From: a virus
Length of the DNA: 64,000 bases
IMG/VR virus record: IMGVR_UViG_3300021171_000006
Span: 1-64,000 of that record
Direction: 5' to 3' (one strand)
The position numbers and the translations under genes were made by a program. The notes under the pieces are model-generated. The model was not told the DNA's origin, searched no databases, and saw only the letters and a program-made list of their open reading frames with translations. Positions 22,913 through 60,205 of the stretch are shown one piece after another (position 1 is the first letter of the stretch; every line of letters begins with the position of its first letter).

Positions 22913-23485
22913 ATGTCATCCGCAGCCCGGAAGCTAGGATCGCTGCGGACGCTTGTGCTCAATGCCGATGGCCGCCCTCTGACGACTTGGCCGCTCAGCC
23001 TTGTCTCGGCTCAAGATGCGGTTTCGACGATCTGGCGTGATCGCGCCTACGTGGTCGAGACATGGGAGGATGCGTTCTTTCGTTCGCCCTCCGTGACGAT
23101 CGCGGTGCCGAAGGCGATGATGCTGCGCGAGTATGCGCACACCGGAAAGCACCCGAAGTTCTGCCGGGCGTCGATCTACCTGCGTGATCGGTTTACGTGC
23201 CAATTCTGCGGCAAGCGATTCGAGCGCTCCGAGTTGACGTTCGACCACCTGCTGCCGCGCCGGCTGGGCGGACGCACGGTATGGGACAACATTCTTTCGG
23301 CGTGCCTGCGGTGCAACGCACAGAAGGGCGACCGCACGGCCGAGCAAGCGGGCATGCGTCCGCTGAGCCTGCCGCGCCAGCCGACCACGGCAGAATTGCT
23401 ACGTGCGGGGCTTGAATTGCTGCCCAACGACATCCGCGACGATTTTGGTTCCTGGTTGTATTGGAACACACCGCTGCAAAGCTGA
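22913..23485 (+). CDS. HNH endonuclease associated with the tRNA array
   Basis: LVLNAD N-terminus; RDRFTCQFCG...TFDHLLPR..GG...N...CLRCN..KG. Confidence 0.9.
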   Translation: MSSAARKLGSLRTLVLNADGRPLTTWPLSLVSAQDAVSTIWRDRAYVVETWEDAFFRSPSVTIAVPKAMMLREYAHTGKHPKFCRASIYLRDRFTCQFCGKRFERSELTFDHLLPRRLGGRTVWDNILSACLRCNAQKGDRTAEQAGMRPLSLPRQPTTAELLRAGLELLPNDIRDDFGSWLYWNTPLQS

Positions 23486-25644: not shown

Positions 25645-25926
25645 ATGAAGCGAATCTTGTTCGCGGGTTTGGGCGCTCTCGCCATCATGGCCGGCGCCGG
25701 CTCCGGTGAGGCACAGATCGGGGGCGCGGGGGTCGTGAGATCGACAGCGGCGACGCTCGGCTACCTGCAATTCTTTACCCCGCCGCCGCTGAACAATCAG
25801 TTGAGCGATACGCAGCTTTGCAAGGGGTGGCCGGTCCCGAGTTTCACCCAGCAAACGGGACTCGTGGGGGGATACGCGATCCTCTACGACGCCAGCGGCA
25901 AGCCTCATTATGTTCCGGGTTGCTGA
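25645..25926 (+). CDS. Small exported protein
   Basis: Signal peptide ending GEA/Q. Confidence 0.6.
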   Translation: MKRILFAGLGALAIMAGAGSGEAQIGGAGVVRSTAATLGYLQFFTPPPLNNQLSDTQLCKGWPVPSFTQQTGLVGGYAILYDASGKPHYVPGC

Positions 25927-25930
25927 GTTG

Positions 25931-26650
25931 ATGAACACGAAGCGCCCGCCCGCGATCATGATTGGGGTGCCCTCACCCGGATTCTGGAAAGCCAAGATGG
26001 GGGTCGACACGCTGTCGATGGCGCTGTGGGCGGCCTATCACGGCATTTATATCGAGGCGCGCGGCGCCGAGGGCGCTTACACCGAGGCAAACCGCAACAA
26101 CATTGTACGGGCGGCGCTCGACTACAAACACCCGATTGACGCGATCATGTGGATCGACGCGGATATGCGGGTTCTCCCGCAAACGCTGCTCCGGCTGTGG
26201 AAATATGGCCGGGACATCGTGGGTGCCAACTACCGCGAACGCGAGCCGCCCTACAGCCATCTCGGCAAGTTCTCCAACGAGCGGGACGCCAAGGCCAAAG
26301 GTGGCATCCATGAGATGGATCTGATGCCGGGGGGCATGATCCTCGTGCGCACAGCGGTTTATCGCAAGCTGTCGGCGCCCTGGTACAAGCTCGACGACGA
26401 CGGTTTGCGCGACGACTACTACTTCTGCACCAAGGCGCGCGAGGCTGGCTACAAGGTCTGGTGCGACATGGAGCTGACCCGCACCGTTCGCCATCGCGGC
26501 GACAACGATGTGTGGTGGTATGGGGAGGGCGAGGAGCCGGTCGCGAGGGCCGATCCGCGTCAGCCTGTCTTCGATATTCCGTCTCTGGTCGGGCGTGCCG
26601 GGCTAGAGAACGGGGCGGCTTTCCCGGCACCGGAGAAGGTAGCATCATGA
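25931..26650 (+). CDS. Glycosyltransferase-like protein (GT-A/GT2-like)
   Basis: IGVP, NRN, MWIDAD (DxD), DDYYFC..AREAGYKVWCD. Confidence 0.75.
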   Translation: MNTKRPPAIMIGVPSPGFWKAKMGVDTLSMALWAAYHGIYIEARGAEGAYTEANRNNIVRAALDYKHPIDAIMWIDADMRVLPQTLLRLWKYGRDIVGANYREREPPYSHLGKFSNERDAKAKGGIHEMDLMPGGMILVRTAVYRKLSAPWYKLDDDGLRDDYYFCTKAREAGYKVWCDMELTRTVRHRGDNDVWWYGEGEEPVARADPRQPVFDIPSLVGRAGLENGAAFPAPEKVAS

Positions 26651-27165
26651 ACGCTTTGAGAAAGACCCTCCTTGGTGGCGTGTCGGCGGTTGCGCTGCTC
26701 GCGCTCCCGATCGCTGGCGAGGCCGACGTACCCGGCACCTCCGTCACTCAGACCGCGACGCATCTTGACGCGGCGGTGATCTGGCAGGGCGAGGCTGCGG
26801 GGGCAACCTCGTGCAACGCCGTGTCGGCGACATCGGCCTCGGATACGATCACAATCACCCCGCCGGGCGGGCAGTACGTGTACCTGACCAACTTCCTCCT
26901 GCAGCACTCGACGGACGCGACCGGCGCGACCGAGGTGCCGACGATCTCGATGACCAACATCGGCACCGGCGGCTTTCCGGCATTCCTCTCGGCGGCATCG
27001 ACCCTGGCGACCACCGGCTACACTGTCAACGTCGACATTCCGTTCGGCGTCGGCGGCCTGAAATCGGCTGCCGCGGGCGTGGCGGTGACCTTCGTCCCGT
27101 CCGCGACCCTCTCGGCGCACACGATCATGTGCAACTCGGTGACGTACTACCTGAACGCGAACTGA
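26647..27165 (+). CDS. Exported beta-rich protein
   Basis: Signal peptide ending GEA/D. Confidence 0.65.
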   Translation: MNALRKTLLGGVSAVALLALPIAGEADVPGTSVTQTATHLDAAVIWQGEAAGATSCNAVSATSASDTITITPPGGQYVYLTNFLLQHSTDATGATEVPTISMTNIGTGGFPAFLSAASTLATTGYTVNVDIPFGVGGLKSAAAGVAVTFVPSATLSAHTIMCNSVTYYLNAN

Positions 27166-27171
27166 GGCCAC

Positions 27172-27672
27172 ATGCGCTGGAAGCTCCTTCTCGGGCTCGC
27201 AGCGGGGCTCGCGGCCACGGGCATCGTTCTGTGGGCACCGTGGGCCTCGCCGCCGCCTTTGCTTTACGAGACGGTCAGTGGCTACCCGATGCGGGTCTAT
27301 TACCGCAATCGCGGCGTCTCTCCGGCGGCGGTGCGCGCGGTCAACGCGATGCCGGCGCTCAGCGTCGACAAGCCGTTGACCGAGGAACAGATCGACAGGT
27401 ATCTCGCCGAGGTCAAGGCGCAGATAAAGCGCGCTCCTACGATCGTCGCGCCGGGCGATTTCATGTGGTTTGTCGCCGATGACCCGGATGAATTGGCGTG
27501 GATGCCGGCGAAGACGGAACACACGACATGGCTCTATATCTTCGGCGTCGTCGAGATGCCGAGATCCAGCGTGGTTGACACCAAATGGGTCAGCGAGCTT
27601 TGCCTTGTCTCGAAGACCAAGGAGCCGTTCAGGCCCTGCGATAGACACAACGACGTATACGCCGGCAGCTGA
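27172..27672 (+). CDS. Membrane-anchored/exported hypothetical protein
   Basis: N-terminal hydrophobic segment. Confidence 0.6.
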   Translation: MRWKLLLGLAAGLAATGIVLWAPWASPPPLLYETVSGYPMRVYYRNRGVSPAAVRAVNAMPALSVDKPLTEEQIDRYLAEVKAQIKRAPTIVAPGDFMWFVADDPDELAWMPAKTEHTTWLYIFGVVEMPRSSVVDTKWVSELCLVSKTKEPFRPCDRHNDVYAGS

Positions 27673-27674
27673 AG

Positions 27675-27700
27675 AGGGGGAGCGATGAACGCCCCACCCT
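27675..27700 (-). terminator. 3' hairpin of the pentamer RNA
   Basis: AGGGUGGGGCG-UUCAU-CGCUCCCCCU; the G.U pair forms only on the minus strand. Confidence 0.55.
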
Positions 27701-27790
27701 CGCCCATACCTTGCCGCGCCCCGCCGCAGCCTACCGCACCGTACCTAGGCACAGCACACCGGACCGGAGCCCACCGCGCCGTAGCACGCC
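27701..27790 (-). repeat. Degenerate 5-nt tandem array
   Basis: GGCgt GCTac GGCgc GGTgg GCTcc GGTcc GGTgt GCTgt GCCta GGTac GGTgc GGTag GCTgc GGCgg GGCgc GGCaa GGTat GGGcg. Confidence 0.9.
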
Positions 27791-27799
27791 GGGAACGGA

Positions 27800-27829
27800 A
27801 GAATACCGATCGGTGTGATTTTCTGTCAA
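27800..27829 (-). promoter_or_regulatory. Sigma70 promoter for the pentamer RNA
   Basis: TTGACA-N18-TATTCT. Confidence 0.75.
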
Positions 27830-27845
27830 CATTGGGAGATCGCTG

Positions 27846-28541
27846 ATGGCGGCCCCAAGTTTGGCGGTTTTTCAAACCGGCGGCGCGGCTGTCACCGGCG
27901 ACAATTTGAACTCGATGGTGCAGTCATGCGATACGATGAGCGAGCTTCGTGCTCTCGTCGGCGTCGCTGGGATGCAAATCTTTGTTCGGGGGCAGAGCGC
28001 TCCAAACGACGGGCTTCAAGGCAACTTCTACTGGAACGTCAACGGCACGGCACCCGATGACAATGGCGTGACGACGGTTGTCCCCTACGGGGCCGGGTCT
28101 GGAGAATGGACGCGGATCATCAACCTTTCCCCAAGGGGAACGTTAGCCACAACCTACCCCCCTAATCCGTCCGGAACGACCAGCCTCATAGGCGTTATGA
28201 TGGGGTTGGGGATGACGTTTACGCCCACGAAATCGGGCAATTTCCTGCTCATGGCCACCGCCATTATTTACAATGCGACATCGGTCGATGGCGTTACGGC
28301 TGAGTTGCGATATGGCATAGGGACCGCGCCTTCCAATGGAACCCCCCTAGCGGGCACCAACATATGCGTGGCCGGCGAAAATAATATCCCCGCCGCAACA
28401 GCATCGACTCCGGTTGCTCTAATAGCATTCGTGGGTAATTTGACGGTCGGGGTCACATATTGGCTTGATTTGTCCCTGGCGGCTATTGCGGGGGGGACAG
28501 CAAACGCTATCAATGTGACATTGACGGTCGTCGAGTTATGA
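27846..28541 (+). CDS. Tail fibre/appendage protein without signal peptide
   Basis: G..APNDGLQGNFYWN...DDNG..V.P..GEW.R motif seen at tailspike N-termini. Confidence 0.65.
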   Translation: MAAPSLAVFQTGGAAVTGDNLNSMVQSCDTMSELRALVGVAGMQIFVRGQSAPNDGLQGNFYWNVNGTAPDDNGVTTVVPYGAGSGEWTRIINLSPRGTLATTYPPNPSGTTSLIGVMMGLGMTFTPTKSGNFLLMATAIIYNATSVDGVTAELRYGIGTAPSNGTPLAGTNICVAGENNIPAATASTPVALIAFVGNLTVGVTYWLDLSLAAIAGGTANAINVTLTVVEL

Positions 28542-28912
28542 TCCGCGCAGTCATTATTGGGCTGTTCGTGTTTTTCGCTCTGCCAGCATTGGCGCAGCCG
28601 GGAGCCTGTCTTGATCCGTCGCAGTCCTGGTCGTGGAGTTACTCGGTTGGGCCGATCTCCTCGATCAACTATTATCTCGACAGCCAGGTTCTCGCGGTCG
28701 CGTACAATGATGGCGTCGAGCATCTGCTGAACGGCGTGCCGACCAATGTCGCGCAGCGCTTTCAGATCGGCTACGGGGTATCGCCGGCCTCGATCTGGGC
28801 CGGGATGCGATACGGCTATCTGGAGATTCTTCAAAGCCAAGTTCACTGCCCATTACGCTCGCAGTCCGGTGAGTTTTTGCTTTCCGCTGCACAACACGAC
28901 ACCCCCCAATGA
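28538..28912 (+). CDS. Exported KTSC-like domain protein
   Basis: Signal peptide ALA/Q; ISSINY..SQVLAVAYNDG....GVP. Confidence 0.55.
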   Translation: MIRAVIIGLFVFFALPALAQPGACLDPSQSWSWSYSVGPISSINYYLDSQVLAVAYNDGVEHLLNGVPTNVAQRFQIGYGVSPASIWAGMRYGYLEILQSQVHCPLRSQSGEFLLSAAQHDTPQ

Positions 28913-29334
28913 AACGCTGGTTCCTCGTTTTCGCTCTGTTGATCCTGGCGCTTATCACGCCCAATCGGGCGTGGTCCCAGAGCTCGTTCTACAATTGCGC
29001 GATCGTCATCCCGAACCCGCCCGCGACGCAGTTTGCCACGCCGGCCGCCAGCCCGACGATCTGCAACCTTGACCCGCAGCGCATCGTCTCCGGTGCCGGC
29101 GTTGGATTGATCCTCAATTTCTCGCCGGGCGCTGTCGCAACCGTCAGCGTGCAAGTCACCGGCGACCAGAACCCGGCAGGCGCGACGGCGGCGTGGAACA
29201 ACCACGACTACATGTTCAACCTCACGAGCTCGATGAACGGCAACATCATCATGCCGCTGACGGCTGTGCGCCTTTACCTGACGAGGTACACATCGGGCAC
29301 GATCACGCTCTATCTGGTGGAGGCCGCGAAATGA
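28909..29334 (+). CDS. Exported beta-rich protein (paralog of 25203-25640)
   Basis: Signal peptide AWS/Q; shared motifs. Confidence 0.7.
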   Translation: MKRWFLVFALLILALITPNRAWSQSSFYNCAIVIPNPPATQFATPAASPTICNLDPQRIVSGAGVGLILNFSPGAVATVSVQVTGDQNPAGATAAWNNHDYMFNLTSSMNGNIIMPLTAVRLYLTRYTSGTITLYLVEAAK

Positions 29335-57192: not shown

Positions 57193-57576
57193 ATGGCACG
57201 CACACGCAAACGGAAAAACGGCGCGGACGCGGAATGGGGCGACGATAGCGGCGAATCTCCGCCGACCGATCACAACGCAAAAAGCCGCGCGGAGACAATT
57301 CAGCACTGCTGTCGTGAGATCACAAATCTGGAAGCCGAGCGGTCTTCGATCAGCGAGCAGGTTCGCGAGATCAAGCAGATCCGCATCAAGGGCGAACTCG
57401 GTATGAAGATTGGCGATTTTAACGCCGCCCTACGCTTATACGCGCTCGAAGGCGATGATCGCGATCAGTTCTTCGACAGGCTCCGGGAAACGTTCGAAGC
57501 CCTCGGCGTGGGAGCACAACTCGATTTCATCGATGCGTTGCGGGGCGAGGCCGAACATGCTGATCGCGGGGATTGA
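57193..57576 (+). CDS. GapR/DUF2312-like DNA-binding protein
   Basis: ITNLEAERSSISEQVREI...G....FNAALRL...ALG. Confidence 0.6.
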   Translation: MARTRKRKNGADAEWGDDSGESPPTDHNAKSRAETIQHCCREITNLEAERSSISEQVREIKQIRIKGELGMKIGDFNAALRLYALEGDDRDQFFDRLRETFEALGVGAQLDFIDALRGEAEHADRGD

Positions 57577-58099
57577 TCCCGGGCTGTCCGGCGCCATCGC
57601 TCTGCGGGATACCGACGACGGCAGCATGAGGGTGGTGGACATCCCCACCTTCTCGCTGTCGCGTAACGGCAAGAACAAGCGAGAGATCGACGCCGTAACG
57701 CTGTCGATCATGCTCGACCTGTCTATCGGACATGCCTTTGTCGAGCAGGTCGGCGCAATGCCACATCAGGGCGTCTCTGGCGTGTTCGCCTTCGGTAAAT
57801 CCTACGGCATCATCATCGGCGTTCTGGCGGCTCGTGGTGTGCCGATGACTTTCGTCAATCCTCGGGTGTGGAAGAAGTCTCTAGGTGTGCCGGCAGCAAA
57901 GGATGGTGCTCGTGCGAGGGCTTCACAATTGATGCCGTCGAGCGCGGAGTGGTGGACGCGGGTGAAAGATGACGGGCGCGCCGAGGCTGCATTGATCGCG
58001 TATTGGGGCATCCGCTCGCTCGCTGGCATTGGAAAGACGATGCCGGCCAAACTAGCCCCGCCGCACAAGCTGGGGCCGCTCTTCGCCGAGAGGTCGTGA
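57557..58099 (+). CDS. RuvC-like Holliday junction resolvase
   Basis: GIDPGLSGA; EQV; P.VWKK; DGRAEAALIA. Confidence 0.85.
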   Translation: MLIAGIDPGLSGAIALRDTDDGSMRVVDIPTFSLSRNGKNKREIDAVTLSIMLDLSIGHAFVEQVGAMPHQGVSGVFAFGKSYGIIIGVLAARGVPMTFVNPRVWKKSLGVPAAKDGARARASQLMPSSAEWWTRVKDDGRAEAALIAYWGIRSLAGIGKTMPAKLAPPHKLGPLFAERS

Positions 58100-58640
58100 T
58101 GAACTTCGCCCCCGTCACGACGAAAGCCGACCTGATGACGCTTGATCCCGACGAGATCACGGCGGGGTACATGGATGCGCAACGAGGTGATCCCGAACCC
58201 GGCGTTAACCGGGGGCGCGCCTATTGGCACGGCTGGCGGAATCGAATGATGGATCTCGGCGAGATCGAGATCGACGCAGGCCATCGCCGACTTGTTCACG
58301 AGATCGCGCCGAATGGCGTGTTCGACGACGAGGTGGTCGGGCGGCGCAGCGAGAGAGTGCGACGGTGATGCCCTACGCCGTCGGCGAGACAGTTCGCATC
58401 GACTTCCCCGCAGACGAGTGGCATGGCCGCGCGGTCGAGGTCGTGCGCGATGATCCGGCGGTCGAGGTCGGGCACGAGGACGGCACCAGCATGATCGCTC
58501 GGGTGATATTCGTCCGGGGCCCCGGTATCCCGCATGCGGTGGGTTTCCACGCCTCTCACATAGCCGGGACGGTGGAGGCTCAGCAGCGCCGGCGGTGGGA
58601 TGCTGAGGGTGACGATCGACAGGGAATGCTCGGATTATGA
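58099..58640 (+). CDS. Two hypothetical ORFs (58099-58368, 58368-58640)
   Basis: TGATG coupling. Confidence 0.55.
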
Positions 58641-58993
58641 ACTCGGGAGCCTGGAATGCCGAATCCATCGCCCGCCTTAAGGATCTGGTCGAGGCCGGAG
58701 AGGCGAGCTTTAAAGAGATCGGCCAGGAGATGGGCCTATCGAAAAACATCGTCATCGGGAAGGCGCGGCGGGAGGGGTTTGTCGGGCCTAAAACGCTCGG
58801 CCCTCGGGACGATGGTGTCCTGACCCTCACGCAGCGCTTGGACGCTCTTGATGTGTTCCCCGGACCTCGGAAGTGCGTGTTCCCGATCGGGCACCCGAGA
58901 GCGCCCAATTTCCATTTCTGCGCCGCGCGGGCGGATGAAGGGGCGCCCTACTGCCCAGAGCATCGGCGGATCGCGCTGGTGAAGGTGCTGTGA
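58637..58993 (+). CDS. gcrA: GcrA-like cell cycle regulator
   Basis: W..E.IARLK.L...S..EIG..MG.SKN.VIGKARR; CVFPIG.P..FC..PYCPEH. Confidence 0.8.
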   Translation: MNSGAWNAESIARLKDLVEAGEASFKEIGQEMGLSKNIVIGKARREGFVGPKTLGPRDDGVLTLTQRLDALDVFPGPRKCVFPIGHPRAPNFHFCAARADEGAPYCPEHRRIALVKVL

Positions 58994-59456
58994 GCGACCT
59001 TTTCGGCAACCCCGTCATCCCTGACGGCCCCGCGATGACGCCCGCCGAGCGACGACAGGCGCTCCGTAAGGAGCCGAAGCCGAACGGGTACGCCGCACCT
59101 CCGGGGAGCGGACCCGCTGGAGAGACCTGCGGATCGTGCCGCAACCATACCGTCGTCAGGTACGCCAAGACCTACCACAAGTGCGAACTGACCCGGCAGG
59201 GGTGGACAGGCGGTCGGGCGACGGACATCCTCGTGCGGTCGCCGGCGTGTAGCCAGTGGGAGGCGAAATGATCGAGGTTCGCCGCTGCCGGGTATCAGCC
59301 GATTGGACGATGCGCAAAGACGGCACGCCCGGAAGCTCCAAGACCACGCTGACCTACTGGCGCGTCCTTGTGGACGGGAGGATCGTGGACAGCTTCCTCG
59401 ACCAGAAGCGGGCAGAGGCGAGGGCGGCTGAGTTGCGCGGGGAGGATGCGGCATGA
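58990..59456 (+). CDS. Two small hypothetical ORFs (58990-59271, 59268-59456)
   Basis: GYAAPPGSGPAGETCGSC motif; coupled. Confidence 0.6.
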
Positions 59457-60205
59457 GCGTTCGCGTCGAGCATATCGGCGATGCGACTCTCTATCTCGGG
59501 GATTGCCAAGAATTGCTGCCTCGGTTCGATGGGGACGTAGCGGTCGTCGCAGATCCGCCCTATGGGATTTGGTTTCGGCATTCTGGCTGCGGCAACCAGT
59601 TCCCGGTCGATCGCGGGGGACGCAAATCGCGCGTGCCACGCTTCGCAAAAATATCAATAGTCGGTGACAAGGAGGGTTGCGATCCGGGACCGATGCTACG
59701 CTTCGAAGAGGTAATCATCTGGGGAGCCAATCACTTCGCCGACCAGCTTCCGGCATCCTCGCGCTGGCTCGTCTGGGACAAACGTGACGGAATGGCCTCA
59801 AATACCTTCTCCGACTGCGAGTTGGCGTGGTGCAAAAAGCCTGGCGCAGCGCGACTCATCCACTACCTGTGGAACGGCATTTGCCGTGCCGGCGAGAAAG
59901 AATCTCGCGTCCATCCGATGCAGAAACCGATAGAGGTCATGGCGTGGTCGATCGGATTCACCGCCGGCGACACCATTTGTGACCCCTTCATGGGCTCCGG
60001 CACAACCGGCGTCGCCGCACTGCGTCTTGGCCGCAAATTCATCGGCATCGAGATCGATGAGCGCTGGTTCGATATCGCCTGTCGCCGCATCGAGGCCGAA
60101 GCGCGACAAGGGCGGCTGGACATTCCCGAGATTGCGCAGCGCCCTCCCCCGAGGGAAGATCCGGTGCCGCCGCTCTTGGCCGCGATGGAGGGGGATGGGG
60201 AATGA
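59453..60205 (+). CDS. DNA amino-methyltransferase (beta class)
   Basis: DPPY before HP.QKP and DPFMGSGTT. Confidence 0.9.
   Translation: MSVRVEHIGDATLYLGDCQELLPRFDGDVAVVADPPYGIWFRHSGCGNQFPVDRGGRKSRVPRFAKISIVGDKEGCDPGPMLRFEEVIIWGANHFADQLPASSRWLVWDKRDGMASNTFSDCELAWCKKPGAARLIHYLWNGICRAGEKESRVHPMQKPIEVMAWSIGFTAGDTICDPFMGSGTTGVAALRLGRKFIGIEIDERWFDIACRRIEAEARQGRLDIPEIAQRPPPREDPVPPLLAAMEGDGE

Follow-up and report, generated by a model that had tools for sequence, protein, structure and literature searches.

Introduction

VIPR is a newly described RNA-guided silencing system, proposed to predate CRISPR, that consists of a protein, Vipr, and a small RNA, the vrRNA (bioRxiv 10.64898/2026.04.26.720920; 10.64898/2026.04.26.720927). 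The vrRNA is about 100 nt long, comprises 9-16 GGY/NN repeats and an invariant structured tail, and co-purifies with Vipr, a RAMP protein that binds with one protomer per repeat (10.64898/2026.04.26.720920; 10.64898/2026.04.26.720927). Recognition of the repeat involves hydrogen bonds to G1, stacking of G2 and a pyrimidine-only pocket for Y3, and the Vipr of phage SUSP1 is described as making specific contacts with G2. The NN pairs read double-stranded DNA on either strand, skipping one base per unit, usually a wobble position, and the binding of Vipr-vrRNA silences transcription (10.64898/2026.04.26.720920; 10.64898/2026.04.26.720927). Disruption of NN pairing is reported to abolish silencing, the targeting threshold is set at 80% NN identity with no self-targets above it, and the activities reported are transcriptional silencing and predicted nucleases or helicases only. 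vrRNAs that lack an accompanying vipr, termed solo vrRNAs, have been described on satellites and in 346 enterobacterial phages (10.64898/2026.10.15.759431).

Here we compare these systems with a candidate solo vrRNA in an uncultured phage. The window is a 64,000-nt stretch of viral DNA (positions 1 to 64,000 of the 91,353-bp IMG/VR record IMGVR_UViG_3300021171_000006), in which an earlier sequence-only reading had picked out a small RNA built from G(G/C)Y-NN pentamers between two tail genes. That reading took the RNA for a programmable guide in which a constant scaffold carries a variable NN payload, perhaps with one protein subunit on each pentamer, and brought up phage RAMP/Cas7-like proteins that use GGY-NN RNAs; the effector, in its view, might be encoded elsewhere in the genome or supplied in trans.

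Results

Organization of the repeat array

On the minus strand of the window, 17 consecutive perfect G[GC][CT]NN pentamers run from 27790 to 27706 and are followed by GGGCG at 27705-27701 (Table 1). Set against the tandem run of at least four GGY-NN units expected of a vrRNA, the array holds 17 G[GC]Y-NN units and one GGG unit, and its strict GGY units number 12. The dinucleotides that alternate with these triplets, and that would constitute the guide, read GT AC GC GG CC CC GT GT TA AC GC AG GC GG GC AA AT CG. When the window was dinucleotide-shuffled 100 times, a seven-unit form of the pattern never arose, and the array's score of 17 compares with a highest value of 6 among 20 Markov-shuffled sequences.

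Upstream of the first repeat is the only sigma-70-like site in 27300-28200, TTGACA-N18-TATTCT, which matches 10 of 12 consensus positions. Immediately 3′ to the last unit, directly after ...GGTAT-GGG, the RNA is predicted to form an 11-bp hairpin (27701 to 27674; centroid −20.6 kcal/mol) that corresponds to the structured 3′ tail of vrRNAs; a pseudoknot like that of SUSP1 is not evident in it. A GGG followed by a GC-rich hairpin recurs after vrRNAs in the Vipr-positive loci L051, L120 and L084. This tail design is common to only a subclass of arrays, and the mean tail folding energy over all arrays is no better than that of controls. Farther along the same strand, a weak hairpin (27664-27651) and the T-rich run next to it could conceivably form the 3′ end of the vrRNA transcript.

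Most of what the sequence-only reading had said of this locus withstood recomputation: the 18 units keep strict 5-nt phase and carry exactly the dinucleotide series it gave, the promoter is as it described and places the predicted RNA start at the first repeat, and the G.U pair of the hairpin works on the minus strand only, since the plus strand would give A.C. The regular-expression search that it had proposed for the rest of the genome showed the array to be the sole one in the 91,353-bp record.

Table 1. Features at and around the array (window coordinates)
Feature	Position	Strand	Basis or remark
Upstream gene, 166 aa, no family hit	27172..27672	+	stop codon just beyond the vrRNA tail
Weak terminator-like hairpin and T-rich run	27641..27664	-	5-bp stem CGGCG/CGTCG, then TTGTGTCTAT
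Predicted 3′ tail hairpin	27674..27701	-	11 bp, one bulged U, one G.U, loop UUCAU
vrRNA repeat tract (candidate)	27701..27790	-	18 pentamers: 12 GGY, 5 GCY, 1 GGG
-10 hexamer TATTCT	27800..27805	-	18-nt spacer; predicted start near 27793, at first repeat
-35 hexamer TTGACA, predicted vrRNA promoter	27824..27829	-	sequence, consensus match
Own near-cognate site	27843..27895	-	26/36 guide positions under the 1-nt-skip rule
Tail-fibre-like gene, 231 aa, PF27114 N-terminal domain family	27846..28541	+	GC3 plot, homologues

Tandem Repeats Finder catches only a 22-nt fragment of the array because its units are too dissimilar, and Rfam, consulted for 26500-29000 with E values up to 10, returned nothing relevant. 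Two other readings of the repeat were considered and dropped: a G-quadruplex, given that five units carry a single G and that the evidence for VIPR is direct, and a TRAP-like leader, once that direct evidence had appeared.

Genomic context

The array fills a 173-nt gap separating two plus-strand genes, which makes the putative RNA gene antisense to the local flow of genes. The codon-position GC plot supports genes at 25910-26650, 27172-27672 and 27846-28541 and one that ends at 27165, all on the plus strand. A 362-aa minus-strand ORF at 26560-27648 is spurious by the same GC3 frame plot, and the idea that the array is the 5′ leader of that ORF was dropped with it. The description of the array as lying between two tail genes holds for its right neighbour, which is tail-fibre-like; its left neighbour has no family hit. 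The PF27114 family is small, with 31 homologues, and its members combine a shared, conserved N-terminal domain with C-terminal parts that differ (P0010, P0012), as in tail fibres. Neither DNA nor protein searches of the collections recovered relatives of the array locus itself, among which a vrRNA would be expected to keep GGY constant and to show a hypervariable NN.

The record is estimated by CheckV to be 59% complete and has linear ends. At one of them, outside the window, a major-capsid homologue (genome 90511-91353) runs off the contig, and the record is therefore truncated there. A GcrA-like regulator (58637-58993) lies side by side with an N6/N4 DNA methylase (59453-60205); this pairing, which we take to be a hint of an alphaproteobacterial host, suggests such a host for the phage. 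An HNH endonuclease gene is found among the virion genes (22913-23485). The gene at 57410-58099 was entertained as a VIPR accessory gene and rejected as a RuvC-like Holliday-junction resolvase; it shares 53% identity with a gene next to the L002 VIPR locus. Another resolvase, RusA, borders the VIPR locus of L008, and the recombination module may be a favoured site for such loci.

Relationship to Vipr-linked arrays

Searching IMG/VR for runs of 14 perfect units yielded more than 120 loci; in 93 of them the arrays vary at NN, and a single locus often contains many. Adjoining the array in 63 of these 93 loci is an ORF of about 200 aa, all such ORFs belonging to one family with the C-terminal motif AG..G.GD[FWY]RP..GRF. 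A profile of 28 family members matches the PDB entry 36pp, 'SUSP1 Vipr protein', at E 8.5e-34. The GGY-NN/RAMP association that the sequence-only reading had brought up is accordingly real, being both the subject of the 2026 VIPR preprints and present in these loci.

Part of the initial scan consists of exact 15-nt coding repeats, for example Pro-rich linkers of SPEPT type encoded on the other strand, and these were set aside. Repeats of 15 nt of the GGTCG-GCTCC-GGTGA type fit the G[GC]Y-NN expression in L001, L010, L018, L019, L036, L085, L096, L100 and others. Pro-rich linker repeats (S-P-E-P-T) are thus a class of false positives for any vrRNA caller that allows C at position 2.

A 63-member profile, a regular expression for the G-loop motif in six frames and a genome search all detected no Vipr in the 91-kb record; the same profile recovered Vipr in five of five control records, including members outside its alignment. 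The earlier statement that the window contains no recognisable RAMP-type effector can, for Vipr, be extended to the whole 91-kb record. This is the scope within which the absence holds: the record, at 59% completeness, breaks off within the capsid gene, and a distant vipr may lie in the remaining 40% or so of the genome. A complete system of Vipr, vap and vrRNA, with vipr in the same genome, is not present within these 91 kb, and the array is a solo vrRNA by the published definition (10.64898/2026.10.15.759431). Solo arrays are common: 30 of the 93 loci have no Vipr, and one solo-array record (105 kb, 93% complete) lacks Vipr throughout. On L115, a 9-kb contig without Vipr, a solo array of 16 GGC-NN units (L115:5975-6054) is located between the portal and a scaffold-like gene. 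This contig is a fragment of a related phage; its portal, terminase-like and capsid proteins are 24-34% identical to those of the present genome.

Decoding of the guide

When the guide is read by the published rule, with one nucleotide skipped per unit, its best match in the genome agrees at 26 of 36 positions (72%) and the next best site at 22. This score was reached by 2 of 500 unit-permuted guides (permutation P about 0.004) and by 0 of 500 base-shuffled guides. The site begins 53 nt from the array and spans position ATG-3 to codon 17 of the tail-fibre-like gene, and every base skipped in it is a wobble position. The 1-nt-skip rule therefore leads to a unique top site, wobble-aligned within a coding sequence. 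Control rules that skip zero or two nucleotides gave only background scores; with a skip of three, the 36/36 obtained comes from the array being matched to itself.

Translated in the orientation of the gene, the guide gives (R)-M-[F/L]-A-P-A-L-A-V-Y-T-T-G-G-P-A-V-T, and the gene itself begins M-A-A-P-S-L-A-V-F-Q-T-G-G-A-A-V-T. The decoded peptide agrees with every conserved N-terminal position of the PF27114 family. Among 86 homologous loci (497 kb), the top two scores, 25/36 (69%) in L140 and 24/36 (67%) in L143, fall in the identical register. For the closest relative, P0002 (77% identical), the amino-acid sequence would allow agreement at 26-29 of 34 positions (76-85%).

In none of the collections scanned was there a non-self site that reached 80% NN identity. 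Exact half-guide scans gave 0 hits in the viral and genome collections, as did a scan allowing three mismatches across 401 genomes of the order to which the best-matching MAG belongs. The corresponding metagenome scan returned three hits (L207-L209), which are attributed to chance; L207 is not a member of the PF27114 family and scores 28/36 because 20 positions were fixed. A related phage, G014, carries a PF27114 family member and encodes Vipr (E 1.2e-49), and its guides have no target in the present genome.

At 72% identity, the phage's own copy of the site lies below the published 80% threshold for targeting. Of its six mismatched codons, four are minority choices in the codon usage of the phage: TTG supplies 14% of Leu codons, AGT 6% of Ser codons, TTT 27% of Phe codons and CAA 32% of Gln codons. 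Such rare codons at the mismatches fit escape from the guide, although the use of AT-rich codons close to gene starts is a recognised confounder. Considering all of this, the best explanation overall, and one that we regard as probable, is that the array is a solo VIPR vrRNA aimed at the PF27114 allele of related phages, with the linked allele of the phage itself escaping.

Near-matches beside other solo arrays

A similar comparison was made for 208 arrays from the IMG/VR loci, 42 solo and 166 Vipr-linked, each scored against its own locus with z of at least 3 taken as significant. Under the 1-nt-skip rule, a significant near-match exists for 5 of the 42 solo arrays, in all five within 300 nt of the array (expected fraction 8.5%), as against 2 of the 166 Vipr-linked arrays, one of them with the match nearby. 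The 0-nt and 2-nt rules gave no adjacent significant match among the 208 arrays. Identity in the near-matches of the five solo arrays is 69-82%, most of these sites lie in wobble alignment within long ORFs, and the arrangement in L106, at a divergent gene start, is like that of the window. With the window array included, six solo arrays reside 26-116 nt from their near-match, at varying distances and orientations. In L051 (L051:799-878 and L051:1092-1138), the site in the locus that best fits a vrRNA beside vipr (62%, z 4.1) lies within this neighbouring vipr itself, in line with the published guides that target vipr.

Placement of the near-match at the adjacent gene's start, here and within 300 nt of the five other solo arrays, is also what would be expected if Vipr-vrRNA bound the site at 27843-27895 despite the mismatches and tuned or timed tail-fibre expression in cis. 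We consider such a role unlikely. A self-regulator should be selected for a perfect match, and the observed identity is only 72% in the window and 69-82% elsewhere; the published absence of self-targets above the 80% threshold and the reported loss of silencing upon NN disruption speak against it as well. In addition, the mismatched codons, mostly rare for the phage, have the look of escape rather than of design.

Variation of the scaffold

Position 2 of the triplet is G in 91% and C in 4.4% of the units of 182 Vipr-linked arrays. In the window array C occupies this position in 28% of units, a level reached by only 1.6% of the Vipr-linked arrays. GCY units are nevertheless found beside Vipr too, in L003, L013, L120 and the GGT-rich array of G014 (L210), and we read the window RNA as a variant of the vrRNA scaffold rather than as a separate family. 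L210 (G014:41651-45208) belongs to a 57-kb phage, 98% complete, that contains both the PF27114 tail-fibre-like gene and Vipr. The vrRNAs of this phage are degenerate and GGT-rich, with GCC, GAT and GGA units, and a TTGACA-N17-TATGGT promoter lies upstream of them.

The unusually high C content at position 2 could instead mark a former vrRNA that has been drifting since its vipr was lost, and a decaying relic of this sort would also account for the lack of Vipr in the 91-kb record and of any target found at 80% identity or more. Such decay seems improbable to us, however, given that 17 units remain in perfect 5-nt phase with G1 invariant and Y3 kept in 17 of 18 units, a pattern indicative of maintenance. 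The strong -35 hexamer and the tail hairpin are both intact, and the deviations at position 2 are all to C and never to A or T, unlike random decay.

A further alternative is that the element is not an RNA guide at all. The 5-bp repeat leaves all reading frames nearly free of stops, and on the plus strand a 53-codon ORF (27685-27846) possesses a ribosome-binding-like site, GAGGGGGAG, and a TGA that overlaps the ATG of the next gene; the repeat might otherwise operate at the DNA level, as a protein-binding or packaging site. We judge this alternative, in either version, to be very improbable. There is no codon-position GC bias across 27650-27850, for which reason the ORF is taken to be an accident of the repeat; protein coding is unable to maintain a 5-nt period, and the Shine-Dalgarno-like run is one arm of the hairpin. 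Moreover, the NN series decodes by the published RNA rule to the neighbouring gene, a match that a DNA site does not predict, while the 0-nt and 2-nt control rules give nothing. That the guide once directed insertion of its cassette beside the near-target, in the manner of CRISPR-associated transposons, would render selection for linkage unnecessary and suits the closeness of the six solo arrays to their near-matches, but this is most unlikely in light of the absence of a transposase or integrase adjoining the array, the varied distances and orientations, and the restriction of the activities reported for VIPR to transcriptional silencing and predicted nucleases or helicases.

Discussion

Judged by its sequence, the array in the window is a genuine solo vrRNA of the kind published in 2026, distinguished by a GCY-rich scaffold and by the layout of a guide beside an escape allele. 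As a stand-alone guide-RNA gene of a VIPR system, it is a candidate known from sequence, and almost certainly a correct one. The proposal that it is a programmable guide RNA agrees with the published anatomy of vrRNAs and with the sensible target to which the guide decodes under the published rule.

Under our preferred reading, that of a solo vrRNA aimed at relatives' alleles, transcription of the minus strand from the array's own promoter near 27793 would yield an RNA of about 120-150 nt, composed of the 18 G(G/C)Y-NN repeats and the 3′ hairpin tail. If the SUSP1 structures are representative, each repeat would be occupied by one Vipr protomer, with the G-S-Y triplets sequestered and the NN pairs exposed; again as in SUSP1, the resulting filament would bind double-stranded DNA in the register NNxNNx... 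and block transcription there. The protein could be supplied by the unsequenced part of the phage or in trans, by a co-infecting phage or a resident prophage. The true target would probably lie in related rival phages, at the start of their PF27114 tail-fibre-like gene. The allele that the phage itself carries at a distance of 53 nt differs at 10 of the 36 positions read and would escape, and tight linkage would hold guide and resistant allele together through recombination.

If correct, this assignment takes solo vrRNAs outside the enterobacterial phages, into an uncultured phage of high GC content that probably infects Alphaproteobacteria, and provides an example of a guide apparently aimed at the start of a structural gene. 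That GCY can make up roughly one in four scaffold triplets is relevant to the stringency with which Vipr recognises G2. The layout of a guide beside a mismatched allele of its own was not found in the available text of the three VIPR preprints. Its presence here and next to five other solo arrays hints at a rule by which the guide travels with its antidote, such that solo guides, if the rule is true, would self-annotate the genes that decide competition between related phages. Whether solo vrRNAs are in general linked cassettes of guide and escape allele, lying at most about 100 nt from the carrier's own mismatched copy of the gene that is silenced in relatives, is a generalization on which we find the balance even. 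Were it true, such cassettes would parallel marker exclusion, with an RNA as the guide and perhaps with the rival's own Vipr as the protein employed.

Parallels can be drawn with several other systems. In T-even phages, free-standing homing endonucleases bring about marker exclusion, with the weapon encoded beside the gene whose rival allele is attacked and the carrier's own allele resistant. These are protein nucleases that spread by gene conversion, whereas RNA-guided transcriptional silencing is predicted for the window array. Virus-borne mini-CRISPR arrays and solitary repeat units are likewise guide-only elements, which borrow an effector encoded elsewhere and exclude close relatives. The guide-only plan is alike, but the RNA grammar and the effector family differ, and the recognition code of the window array is gapped. 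TRAP binds (G/U)AG-NN repeats in the Bacillus trp leader, each a triplet with a 2-nt spacer that is bound by one subunit. It shares the 5-nt period of the window array; its spacers, however, are uninformative, its repeats reside in an mRNA leader and it does not target DNA.

In the RNA itself, the array resembles type II VIPR of Escherichia phage SUSP1 and of a Pseudomonas fulva prophage, which has the same repeat grammar, a 3′ tail and a size of about 100 nt (10.64898/2026.04.26.720920; 10.64898/2026.04.26.720927; PDB 36pp), together with the same 1-nt-skip decoding and wobble alignment (10.64898/2026.04.26.720920). The window array departs from that type in having no adjoining vipr or vap, in its 18 units as compared with the usual 9-16, in its five GCY units and in a tail that is a simple hairpin with no evident pseudoknot (10.64898/2026.04.26.720920). 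With the solo vrRNAs of VIPR-null SUSP1-like phages and F5 satellites, the candidate shares the stand-alone GGY-NN array with its own tail, a contig without vipr, a guide wobble-aligned to a coding target and a self-match that scores below non-self (10.64898/2026.10.15.759431). The published examples are situated at vipr-vap1 deletions or on satellites, and their targets are vipr, other vrRNAs, satellites or REP decoys of the host, whereas the window array is found within the tail module of a phage that is uncultured and appears to be aimed at a tail-fibre-like gene (10.64898/2026.10.15.759431). Unlike those solo vrRNAs as published, the window array is antisense to its neighbours and has its own mismatched allele only 53 nt away (10.64898/2026.10.15.759431).
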